Assembly: GCA_947442505.1 (NCBI GenBank)
Contig: CANEVR010000001.1
Location: forward strand, 30,305-94,304
Direction: 5' to 3'
Length of the DNA stretch: 64,000 nt
Origin: Flavobacteriales bacterium
Lineage (GTDB): Bacteria > Bacteroidota > Bacteroidia > Flavobacteriales_D > Sanyastnellaceae
Shown: piece after piece, positions 36,418 to 48,360 of the stretch
How positions within the stretch are numbered: position 1 is the stretch's first letter
Layout of the letters: every line of letters starts with the position of its first letter
Program-made: the position numbers and the translations under genes
The notes under the pieces: generated by a model
The model's database searches: none
Told to the model about the DNA's origin: nothing
Seen by the model: the letters and a program-made list of their open reading frames with translations, nothing else

Positions 36418-36663
36418 TGTTTAGAAATTTTTAGGGTTAATAAAAAGTTACACTTCTATACAACACTACCAAACAATAAAAACGAAACGAAACATTTACA
36501 CAACTATTCTAATACGCAATCATGCATCCCTCTATTGCATTTCTGCTTTAAAATAACTTTTTCCTCTTTTTTCTAAAATATTTTATCTATTGCAACAAAA
36601 CTGCAAACAATTGGTTGTATATTTAAAATTCTCGCCAAGTAACCCCTTAAATAATATATATAT

Positions 36664-36930
36664 ATGATGAAAAAAATGGTGAAGTTAAGTTTTGGGAAGT
36701 GGAAGGTGGTAAAGTTTAGTGGTAGTTATTATGTGAATTTTTTTGTGGAGAAGGATTTGTTTGTGGTGATTGATGGTGAAAAGTATTTTAAGATTAAAAA
36801 AGGGAAGTTGAGAAGTTTGGGGATGAAGTATTTTGAAAAGAAAAAAGAGGAATCCTATGAAGGTGTTGAATCCTCCCCCGAACTCATCCGTCTCATCAAA
36901 CTTCTCGTCGAACTCAATCAGGCCGCTTAA
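36664..36930 (+). CDS. questionable 88-aa ORF; its first ~63 codons lie in a cytosine-free tract
   Basis: An ORF exists, but the composition is bizarre: no C in 36647..36853, so no Pro, His, Gln, Thr or Ala are encoded there. It could equally be non-coding. Confidence 0.3.
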   Translation: MMKKMVKLSFGKWKVVKFSGSYYVNFFVEKDLFVVIDGEKYFKIKKGKLRSLGMKYFEKKKEESYEGVESSPELIRLIKLLVELNQAA

Positions 36931-36963
36931 TCCATCCCCATACCGTTCTGGTATTCCTGATTA

Positions 36964-37075
36964 TTGAGTAAAGAGTATTGAGTATTCAGTAACGAGTAAC
37001 GAGTAACGAGTAACGAGTAACGAGTATCCAGTATCCAGTATCCAGTATCCAGTATCCAGTATCCAGTAATGAGTA
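36964..37075. repeat. 16 tandem heptamers NNNAGTA (ttg, aag, ttg, ttc, acg x5, tcc x6, atg)
   Basis: Counted directly: 16 x 7 = 112 nt with an invariant AGTA core. There are two internally perfect sub-arrays, (ACGAGTA)5 and (TCCAGTA)6. Confidence 0.95.
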
Positions 37076-37105
37076 CTATCTACTCTCTACTGTGAGCTGT
37101 GAACT

Positions 37106-37217
37106 CATTCCTTCATTCCTTCATTCCTTCATTCCTTCATTCCTTCATTCCTTCATTCCTTCATTCCTTCATTCCTTCATTCCTTCATTCCTGCATCCCT
37201 TCATCCCTTCATCCCTT
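37106..37217. repeat. 14 tandem octamers (CATTCCTT x10, CATTCCTG x1, CATCCCTT x3)
   Basis: Counted directly: 14 x 8 = 112 nt, ending 30 nt before the NADAR start codon. The + strand is G-free across 37102..37192. Confidence 0.95.
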
Positions 37218-37246
37218 TAAGTATAACCCCTAAATACACAAACTTT

Positions 37247-37720
37247 ATGGCAAACATCTCTTTTACAAAAGTCAACCTCCCTTACGGTTGGTTGGGAAAC
37301 ATGGCTCCTTCCACCATCACTTGGAACGGAAAAACCTGGAGAACATGTGAAGCAGTTTTTCAAGCAATGAGATTCTCTAACCCAGAAATCCAAGAAATCA
37401 TTCGGTTGGAAAAAAGTCCCATGTCTTGTAAGATGAAATCAAAAAAGTACAAATCTGAAATGACAGTGGAACCCATGTCCAAACAGGATGTTCAAAACAT
37501 GAAAACCTGTCTCCTTCTCAAATTCACTCAAAACCCGGTTCTACTTCAAAAACTTCTTTTAACCAAAAATCATGTTCTAATTGAAGACATTGGATCAAGG
37601 AAAGGTGAACGTCACCTCTTTTGGGGAATGAGAAACAAAGGAGGTCTGTGGGAAGGAAAGAACATTTTGGGAAAACTTTTGATGGAAGTACGTGAGGAAC
37701 TAAAACATAACGTCTCATAA
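37247..37720 (+). CDS. NADAR (DUF1768/YbiA-like) domain protein
   Basis: Aligns by eye along its whole length with E. coli YbiA: GWLGNMAPSTITWNGKTWRTCEAVFQAMRF vs GDFSNFAAWPIKVDGKTWPTSEHYFQAQKF; SPMSCKM vs SPMVAARM; WEGKNILGKLLMEVREEL vs GKGKNRLGYLLMELREQL. Confidence 0.85.
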   Translation: MANISFTKVNLPYGWLGNMAPSTITWNGKTWRTCEAVFQAMRFSNPEIQEIIRLEKSPMSCKMKSKKYKSEMTVEPMSKQDVQNMKTCLLLKFTQNPVLLQKLLLTKNHVLIEDIGSRKGERHLFWGMRNKGGLWEGKNILGKLLMEVREELKHNVS

Positions 37721-47089: not shown

Positions 47090-47209
47090 TGCGCTTTATT
47101 TGATAAGTAGGAAATGTAGGTATAGTTACACTTGAACAGAAAAATTTATAAAATGATGTCGCTCCGCTGGAGCTTTGATCTAGGTTCTGACGCTAATTAT
47201 AATCAGTAA

Positions 47210-47229
47210 GGGCGTATTGCAATACGCCC
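47210..47229. repeat. perfect 20-bp palindrome GGGCGTATTGCAATACGCCC
   Basis: Read directly. The reverse complement of the first 10 nt equals the last 10 nt. It is a GC-rich island in an AT-rich intergenic region. Confidence 0.9.
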
Positions 47230-47286
47230 CTACCCCGGAGCTAACGAAATCTCAAAAAGAAGTTAGAATTAATCCCCAACTACTTA

Positions 47287-47410
47287 TCACTTCATCTCCT
47301 CATCACTTCATCTCCTCATCACTTCATCTCCTCATCACTTCATCTCCTCATCACTTCATCTCCTCAACTCCTCATCACTTCATCACTTCATCTCCTCATC
47401 ACTTCATCAC
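47287..47410. repeat. 16-nt tandem repeat TCACTTCATCTCCTCA (5 perfect copies, two half units, one more copy, one partial)
   Basis: Counted directly. The + strand has no G across 47267..47427. The array abuts and overlaps the stop of the Fic gene. Confidence 0.95.
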
Positions 47411-48360
47411 CTTTTCCTCTTCCTAATGTCATGATACTGCATTACGGCTTCTGCCGTGGTGAGCCAATTGCGTCCTTCCTTGTAGCCCGCTATTTTTCCC
47501 TGCCTGACCAATAAACTCAAATACTCTTGTCCATAGGGTACTTCAATCTCTTGAACAATATTGGATATCGGAAGATAACTTTCATTGTCATTGTCCAAAT
47601 GACTGAGGTAAATGTCCAACGACCGCTCAACCGCTTGAAGAATCAACAACAACAATTTCTCGTAGTTGCCTTGATTGGCCTTGTTCAGGGCATCGTAATA
47701 TTTCTTTCTGTCTTGTTGCAGGATGATGGCGGGAGGATAACCCGCACGCATCAGCAACAAGTTGAACATCAAGCGAACCGTTCTGCCATTGCCGTCAAAG
47801 AAAGGATGAATCCAAACCATTCGGTGATGAAACATCATGGCCTTGATCAAAACGGGAATATTGTTTTTTTCATTGACCCATTCCAACAACTCATTCATCA
47901 GGTCATCCACCTTCAGCGCATTGGGTGGTGTGAAATTGGCACCCATGATGCGAACACCGGCATTGCGGTACCTTCCGCCAAACTCCAATTCGATGTTTTT
48001 TAATACAACACGATGGATGTCGAAAATCTGTGATGCAGCAAGCAATCCCTTTTTCTGGACCATGCCTTCCAGAATCTCAATGGCCTCATGGTGGTTGAGG
48101 GTTTCAAAGTGCTCTCTCAAGGTCTTACCTCCTACCGTGATGCCATCCGACAAAACGATGCGGGTTTCCTGTAAGGTCAGCGTATTGCCCTCGATGCCAT
48201 TGGAATGGCAGGTCCATTCCAACATCAGCGACTCCCGCAGCCGATGTATAGCGGCCGATGCAATGGGACGTAATTTATCCAATCGATCTTTTTTCTGATC
48301 AATTCGATCCAGCATAAACTGCCACTTTTCTTGTCCCGTTGGATAATCTTTCCAATTCAT
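47407..48360 (-). CDS. Fic family protein (class II, with an N-terminal inhibitory S-x-x-x-E-G motif)
   Basis: Fic motif HPFFDGNGRTVRL. The upstream SNGIEGN matches the (S/T)xxxE(G/N) inhibitory helix. The C-terminal ~70 aa look like a winged helix. Confidence 0.9.
   Translation of the reverse strand: MNWKDYPTGQEKWQFMLDRIDQKKDRLDKLRPIASAAIHRLRESLMLEWTCHSNGIEGNTLTLQETRIVLSDGITVGGKTLREHFETLNHHEAIEILEGMVQKKGLLAASQIFDIHRVVLKNIELEFGGRYRNAGVRIMGANFTPPNALKVDDLMNELLEWVNEKNNIPVLIKAMMFHHRMVWIHPFFDGNGRTVRLMFNLLLMRAGYPPAIILQQDRKKYYDALNKANQGNYEKLLLLILQAVERSLDIYLSHLDNDNESYLPISNIVQEIEVPYGQEYLSLLVRQGKIAGYKEGRNWLTTAEAVMQYHDIRKRKR

Follow-up and report, generated by a model that had tools for sequence, protein, structure and literature searches.

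The window, as we call the whole stretch of DNA analyzed here (64,000 nt), comes from a Flavobacteriales genome of 2.64 Mb in 106 contigs with 42% GC. Within it, a conserved small gene precedes a NADAR-domain gene on the same strand, and two tandem repeat arrays, one of heptamers and one of octamers, lie in the spacer between them. Arrays were located with Tandem Repeats Finder (TRF) and by exact parsing of the units. The features of the locus are the following:

36618-36625, plus strand: best Bacteroidota-type -7 box, TATATTTA, 5/6 to TAnnTTTG, upstream of the small gene
36640-36653, plus strand: leader motif TAACCCCTTAAATA, which ends ~ 10 nt before the ATG of the small gene
36664-36930, plus strand: conserved small gene, 88 aa, very C-poor, preceding NADAR (from conservation)
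36931-36962, plus strand: conserved left anchor of the spacer, 32 nt, identical in 5/5 alleles compared
36964-37075, plus strand: heptamer array, 16 x NNNAGTA (TRF, exact parse), copy number polymorphic
37076-37105, plus strand: linker with a CTATC loop, inverted units at 37081-37094, then 11 unique bases (hairpin in the fold)
37106-37217, plus strand: octamer array, 14 units (TRF, exact parse), one of ~ 42 in the genome
37218-37246, plus strand: conserved NADAR leader, 29 nt, holding TAACCCCTAAATA at 37224-37236
37247-37720, plus strand: NADAR-domain gene, 157 aa (PF08719, E 1.2e-22)

An earlier note on this DNA had described arrays of 16 x 7 nt and 14 x 8 nt, 112 nt each, with an invariant AGTA and the blocks (ACGAGTA)5 and (TCCAGTA)6 in the first of them. 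The exact parse reproduced all of this, and the PF08719 match bears out the naming of the downstream gene as NADAR. The heptamers run in the order TTGAGTA, AAGAGTA, TTGAGTA, TTCAGTA, (ACGAGTA)5, (TCCAGTA)6, ATGAGTA, and the octamers in the order (CATTCCTT)10, CATTCCTG, (CATCCCTT)3. TRF placed the heptamer array at 36962-37068 (period 7, 15.3 copies) and the octamer array at 37105-37217 (period 8, 14.1 copies, 97% matches). Of the two gaps given in the earlier note, the 30 nt between the arrays stood, while the distance from the end of the octamers to the NADAR ATG had to be corrected from 30 to 29 nt. The linker was not found to be neutral sequence: after its CTATC loop come TACTCTC and TACTGTG, two heptamer units in inverted orientation, and in the minimum-energy fold these form a short hairpin with the last part of the heptamer array. 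Few arrays in the genome match these two in length and perfection. Because the same heptamer and octamer arrays recur in independent assemblies, we do not regard them as an assembly artefact.

The octamer array is rich in C (40%) and almost free of G (0.9%), and 43 YC dinucleotides occur along its 112 nt; as RNA it is predicted to remain unpaired, in a fold of the spacer that is unremarkable (z = -1.3). All three frames of its pyrimidine strand are free of stop codons, and those of its purine strand all contain TGA. A reading of the octamers as an N-terminal extension of NADAR was rejected: the frame is open, but it offers no ATG, GTG, or TTG. The C-rich units also bear an anti-Shine-Dalgarno likeness, which is a resemblance of sequence only. 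Bacteroidota largely do without Shine-Dalgarno (SD) pairing.

The small gene shares 75% identity with the sister-species ORF over residues 1-64, and its exact protein was found on other contigs too. A NADAR match was observed in only 3 of 60 relatives, with the small gene adjoining in only one, and the NADAR locus sits in a variable, defence-like island. The box TATATTTA is the probable promoter of the small gene and, by extension, would serve NADAR as well; TATATTTG occupies the equivalent place at the sister-species locus (L010, genome G010). No TAnnTTTG-like box (at least 5/6) was found within 36931-37246, the scan for sigma-70 promoters and terminators gave no excess over shuffles, and Rfam returned no match in the whole window. 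With no such box between the end of the small gene and the start of NADAR, the arrays most likely form part of a leader or of an intercistronic stretch, and we infer that the small gene and NADAR are co-transcribed. The leader motif, written generally as TAACCCCT(T)AAATA, has only two copies in the 2.64-Mb genome, at 36640-36653 and 37224-37236. Both end ~ 10 nt before an ATG, that of the small gene and that of NADAR, and the second copy, TAACCCCTAAATA, is kept in all alleles. This motif may be a shared leader or operator of a two-gene module. In the sister species, a 5/6 -7-like box seen by eye, TATATTTC (L010:1417-1425), directly follows the stop of the small gene, so NADAR may have its own promoter there, and such a promoter is possible in some genomes.

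The same spacer was compared in other assemblies, giving an allele series of 78, 185, 191, 193, 309, and 316 nt. The window allele is 316 nt, with its 16 heptamers and 14 octamers. In another assembly (L014), the spacer is 309 nt and holds (TCCAGTA)5 where the window holds six copies. With 0 mismatches across 2191 + 2974 flanking nt, the missing TCCAGTA unit is the only difference between the two over 5.4 kb. In a related population (L018), the spacer is 185 nt, with 5 octamers, no heptamers, and a TCTCTT-type run instead. L018 differs from the window by 2 nt in the small gene, is 92% identical to it in NADAR, and retains both anchors, the 32 nt that follow the stop and the 29 nt that lead up to the ATG. 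L044-L046, a further three metagenome contigs of the L018 type, have spacers of 191-193 nt: relative to L018, L044 and L045 are longer by 6 nt, which is one extra TCTCTT, and L046 has 2 nt more still, in an A run. The heptamer array is missing from L018, L044, L045, and L046 alike. In the sister species (G010, L010), the spacer is 78 nt, and TRF found no array. Every one of these allele comparisons amounts to a change in the length of simple sequence between two fixed anchors.

Because L014 differs from the window by one TCCAGTA unit only, slippage instability is supported, and the NADAR spacer can be described as a hypermutable tandem repeat with natural copy-number polymorphism. The earlier note had taken the perfect internal copies as a sign of recent slippage or expansion; five against six copies of TCCAGTA in otherwise identical DNA agree with this, as does the TCTCTT variation in the related population. 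Among relatives the arrays are not identical (14 vs 5 vs 0 octamers). The equal 112-nt lengths, which had been noted as perhaps a coincidence, are indeed one. In L014 the heptamers and octamers span 105 and 112 nt, and in L018 0 and 40 nt; equal length as a design feature was rejected on these figures. Loss of mismatch repair was also rejected as the cause of the arrays: MutS is present in the genome, so such a loss is not needed to account for them. The length of the NADAR spacer is unconserved, and only measurements of expression could justify taking it for a regulatory design. Array size also varied between species at two further orthologous sites, from ~ 10 units to a proto-unit or none.

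The arrays also interrupt assemblies. The contigs of L015 and L016 break inside the NADAR arrays, and, in all, five contigs from other public assemblies (L015, L016, L019, L020, and L047) have ends that fall within arrays of this family. The arrays thus repeatedly cause assemblies of this lineage to break.

The supposition that the arrays are special to NADAR did not survive a genome-wide search, in which both words proved to be genus-wide. TRF on the whole genome reported ~ 40 period-8 arrays with related units, namely CATCCCTT, CATCTCCT, CATCCCCT, CATTCCTT, CATTCCCT, and CATCAC(C/T)T, and a regular-expression search of the whole genome yielded 42 octamer-family arrays of 3 to 15 units each. 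The commonest unit is CATCCCTT, with 94 copies. By comparison, CATTCCTT is uncommon: most of its 18 copies make up the ten-copy block of the NADAR array, and because it is rare elsewhere in the genome, this long perfect block looks like a local and recent expansion. A search for (CATCCCTT)3 that allowed 2 mismatches gave 66 matches in the host genome, and the reversed control matched in no genome. Of 7 further genomes in the genus, 4 contain the pattern, and none of the 113 searched from 31 other genera of the family does. Among the 14 genomes of the genus, 7 have heptamer arrays of the NNNAGTA type (controls gave 0-1); elsewhere in the genus they show the same invariant AGTA and variable triplet, often as inverted pairs. 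Three good-quality genomes of the genus (G001, G010, and G013) have neither repeat word. Perfect arrays of at least 3 copies numbered 18 for the octamer and 2 for the heptamer, compared with 0 for both in block shuffles. The 2 perfect heptamer arrays are most likely the two blocks of the NADAR locus.

None of the 18 perfect octamer arrays has its midpoint inside an ORF. The repeats therefore show both the genome-wide over-representation and the non-coding bias by which long simple sequence repeats (LSSRs) are recognized. The exception to the bias is a set of imperfect 4-unit runs in three giant paralogs, which lie outside the window:

C26:20013-25499, plus strand: giant paralog
C5:58604-64564, minus strand: giant paralog
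C62:8721-13175, minus strand: giant paralog

These proteins are 1484-1986 aa long and have a LamG-like 'GLVAWYPFNGNA' start, with the four octamer units in frame. The units follow a signal-peptide-like N-terminus, e.g., ...SSSLHSLIPSSL....

To examine where the octamer arrays lie, all 42 were oriented on the pyrimidine-rich strand and placed relative to crude longest-ORF gene calls. The 3' end falls between -17 and +27 nt from the stop codon of an antisense gene in 25 of the 42; equivalently, the purine-rich strand, read in sense, begins at or over the stop codon. If arrays were placed at random in intergenic DNA, the share would be 5.6%, a difference with p about 5e-21, although such p-values overstate the case because the gene calls are crude and the arrays are not independent events. 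The placement seen at NADAR, with the pyrimidine strand sense and shortly upstream of a start, was found in 6 of 42 arrays against 14.8% expected, which is the level of chance. At NADAR, the G-rich strand is the non-coding one.

At two sites, ATGA-rich 3' coding ends were seen to resemble the unit, e.g., ...GATGATGAAGGGGAT...TAA in an array-free species. The gene-end sites compared were L004/L021-L024 and L002/L027/L028, in genomes G000, G004, G007, G009, and G012. At these sites, one species has a canonical intrinsic terminator and the others have arrays. This hints that arrays are seeded at ATGA-rich gene ends. Local slippage alone leaves the sharing of one octamer word over ~ 42 loci unexplained, so some seeding or spreading process must exist, for example through mosaic REP-like modules or recombination.

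Mosaics of this kind were observed in the same genome. On the pyrimidine strand, many octamer arrays follow the order RAATGA hexamers, conserved linker, octamers, and GCTCCnnnGGAGC and GGGCGAAT...ATTCGCCC hairpins lie near many of them. The two-array layout at NADAR is a local version of this order of purine-leaning array, linker, and octamer array. A further array lies within the window:

47286-47412, plus strand: second octamer-family array, a 16-mer made of two octamers, 7.9 copies (TRF)

An antisense Fic-domain gene (47407-48360) takes its stop codon from the last unit of this array, and REP-like hairpins (GCTCCGCTGGAGC; GGGCGTATTGCAATACGCCC) precede the array at ~ 47156-47250. In other assemblies, every contig found breaks at this second array. 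The genome also encodes two Y1_Tnp (RAYT-like) genes of 145-155 aa, at C9:45114-45512 and C22:26372-26833. Each of these Y1 transposase genes is flanked by REP-like repeats: the C22 gene by GCTCCnnnGGAGC-type hairpins and the C9 gene by a different REP-like hairpin. A Y1_Tnp match was found in 9 of 14 genus genomes and was missing from G001, G010, G013, and G002.

We weighed three other readings against the view that the arrays are slippage-prone simple repeats without a switch function. The earlier note had proposed a classic phase-variation mechanism, in which copy-number changes of 7 or 8 nt would alter promoter-to-gene spacing or the 5'-UTR. Under this reading, NADAR expression would be switched or tuned across the population, and NADAR would be a bet-hedging gene of defence or counter-defence. 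Several features of the locus suit such a contingency locus: copy number differs in otherwise identical DNA and between related populations, the octamers end 29 nt from the ATG, the island is variable and defence-like, and the arrays stand out in the genome for length and perfection. Moreover, each of the three giant paralogs carries the octamers in frame, where the word could work as a switch by frameshifting; because a one-unit change there would shift the frame, the paralogs are better phase-variation candidates than NADAR. At NADAR itself, however, the arrays fall outside the reading frame, beyond the small gene's stop (36930) and ahead of the NADAR ATG (37247), and neither within nor downstream of them was a Bacteroidota promoter box (at least 5/6) found. 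Given a spacer that lacks such a box and arrays that are non-coding, a phase switch of the classical type is not supported. Units of 7 or 8 nt in a non-coding spacer would give gradual length change rather than a binary switch, and the family occurs at starts only at chance frequency, mostly following the stops of unrelated genes. For analogous repeats, Rehm et al. were negative too. We consider a contingency locus unlikely here.

It is likewise unlikely, in our estimate, that the octamers are a structural or binding element, with C-rich (CAUUCCUU)n RNA acting as a Rho loading or ribosome standby site, or with G-quadruplexes (G4) forming on the template. The Rho or standby version would set the ratio of the small protein to NADAR, in a phylum whose ribosomes work independently of SD pairing; the octamers' C-richness, YC content, and predicted lack of pairing fit it, and a rho gene is present. 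For the quadruplex version, the orientation rule relative to genes is identical to that of the G4-forming GGGNATC repeats, and octamer arrays account for 22 of the 33 G4 motifs of canonical form (four G3 tracts, loops 1-7) that the genome contains. These motifs occur in 15 of the 42 arrays, but 27 have none, and CATCTCCT, the second most common unit, contains no G3 tract. The NADAR array has only three G3 tracts, and a fourth would need an 11-nt loop reaching into the leader, so that it lacks the four or more G3 tracts, closely spaced, that a canonical quadruplex requires. Neither the related alleles nor the sister species has the long array. A broader form of this idea, which we find quite improbable, would make the octamers an orientation-specific RNA or DNA element, a Rho loading or standby site before NADAR and an antisense stop at 3' ends, with slippage tuning NADAR. 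If true, slippage would be a graded, heritable 'rheostat' of NADAR vs the small upstream protein and not a switch. Very unlikely, finally, is a mobile REP/BIME-type mosaic footprint, mobilized by RAYT, in which the arrays would have arrived by insertion and not by local expansion. The fixed-order mosaics with their hairpins elsewhere, the GCTCCnnnGGAGC-type hairpins around the C22 RAYT-like gene, and the spacer, which compared with the sister species looks like extra DNA over its whole 316 nt, would all suit this origin. The array-free genomes G001, G010, and G013 also lack Y1_Tnp, but the genomes compared are related, which makes this co-occurrence weak evidence, a lead and not a result, and G002 has heptamer arrays and no Y1_Tnp match. 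Within 36931-37246, no recurrent REP-like hairpin module was found, and single-unit allele differences are the mark of slippage, not of transposition.

The reading that we prefer, and consider probable, is that the arrays are slippage-prone simple repeats belonging to a genus vocabulary, situated inside a transcript or leader, non-coding, and without a switch function. According to this reading, two words would fill intergenic spacers across one freshwater Flavobacteriales genus, the NNNAGTA heptamers and the CATYCCYT octamers (GGGATGAA-type on the opposite strand). Both would have expanded in the spacer between the conserved small gene and NADAR, where the 32-nt left anchor and the 29-nt NADAR leader appear to be the only fixed parts. 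The arrays would most likely lie within a two-gene transcript, or in the leader of NADAR, and changes in copy number would be near-neutral or, at most, a gradual tuning of NADAR expression.

The NADAR arrays are of a kind of intergenic repeat known from other bacteria, and several systems can be compared with them. Classical phase-variable loci, such as those of Haemophilus and Neisseria, carry tetranucleotide or homopolymer tracts. The NADAR locus is like these contingency loci in having a hypermutable tandem repeat, with natural copy-number polymorphism, in a conflict-type island. It is unlike them in that the repeat lies outside the ORF and probably not between promoter elements, has units of 7-8 nt, and belongs to a family adjoining dozens of unrelated genes, mostly at their 3' ends. 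REP/BIME mosaics with RAYT transposases are reported from Proteobacteria (Di Nocera et al. 2013, PMC3733652). The genome studied here shares with them mosaic intergenic elements, small hairpins, and single-copy Y1 genes flanked by hairpins. REP/BIME elements are not known to include tandem arrays of 7-8-nt units, and the NADAR spacer differs from these elements in having no REP hairpin.

The STRR heptamers of heterocystous cyanobacteria, reportedly described by Mazel et al. in 1990, are also tandem families in the non-coding DNA of one lineage, built from few fixed words. They belong to a different phylum and use different words, and they are not known to show an association with stop codons or a period of eight. 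Long simple sequence repeats with units of 5-11 nt were surveyed by Mrazek, Guo and Shah 2007, as reported in MacGregor 2015 (PMC4679880). MacGregor 2015 described long intergenic heptamer arrays in Gramella forsetii and Aequorivita sublithincola, whose close relatives have shorter, repeat-free spacers (PMC4679880). They resemble our arrays in several respects: units of 7-8 nt are in excess, sporadic, and lineage-specific, with slippage as the proposed cause, and several words share one spacer, with shorter and repeat-free spacers in relatives. There are two differences: the word there is TAACTGA, and the Beggiatoaceae sets mostly lie just upstream of starts, where most of ours adjoin stops.

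The closest comparison is with the G-rich GGGAATC and GGGGA(C/T)T intergenic repeats of Xanthomonas and Nostoc (Rehm et al. 2015, PLoS One, PMC4692102). Their positional rule places the G-rich strand either as coding, at most 50 bp after or over a stop, or as non-coding, at most 50 bp before a start (Rehm et al. 2015, PMC4692102). Both the octamer family and the NADAR array follow it, the NADAR array as an instance of the second case. The unit is near-identical, GGGATGAA or GGGAATGA here vs GGGAATC there, and the repeats are genome-wide and non-coding in both. Close relatives were reported to vary in length at these repeats, without a link to gene function (Rehm et al. 2015, PMC4692102), and we observed the same in our arrays, with variation in length and sequence at the same site and no link to gene function. 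The differences are an octamer in place of a heptamer, a different phylum, no clear four-unit preference, and mosaics with hexamers and REP-like hairpins. In addition, 15 of the 42 arrays here have four G3 tracts and the NADAR array consists mostly of a GG variant, a contrast that bears on Rehm's G4 subclass, which the G4 criterion defines, and not on LSSRs in general. Phase variation was judged unlikely for the Rehm repeats and their function left open (Rehm et al. 2015, PMC4692102). Heptamer and octamer families have been known since STRR in 1990 and the LSSR survey in 2007 without an accepted function or origin. The NADAR locus adds a clean natural allele series in one spacer with fixed anchors on both sides, and because this series comes from a genus whose members exist with and without the vocabulary, the questions of origin and effect become directly testable.
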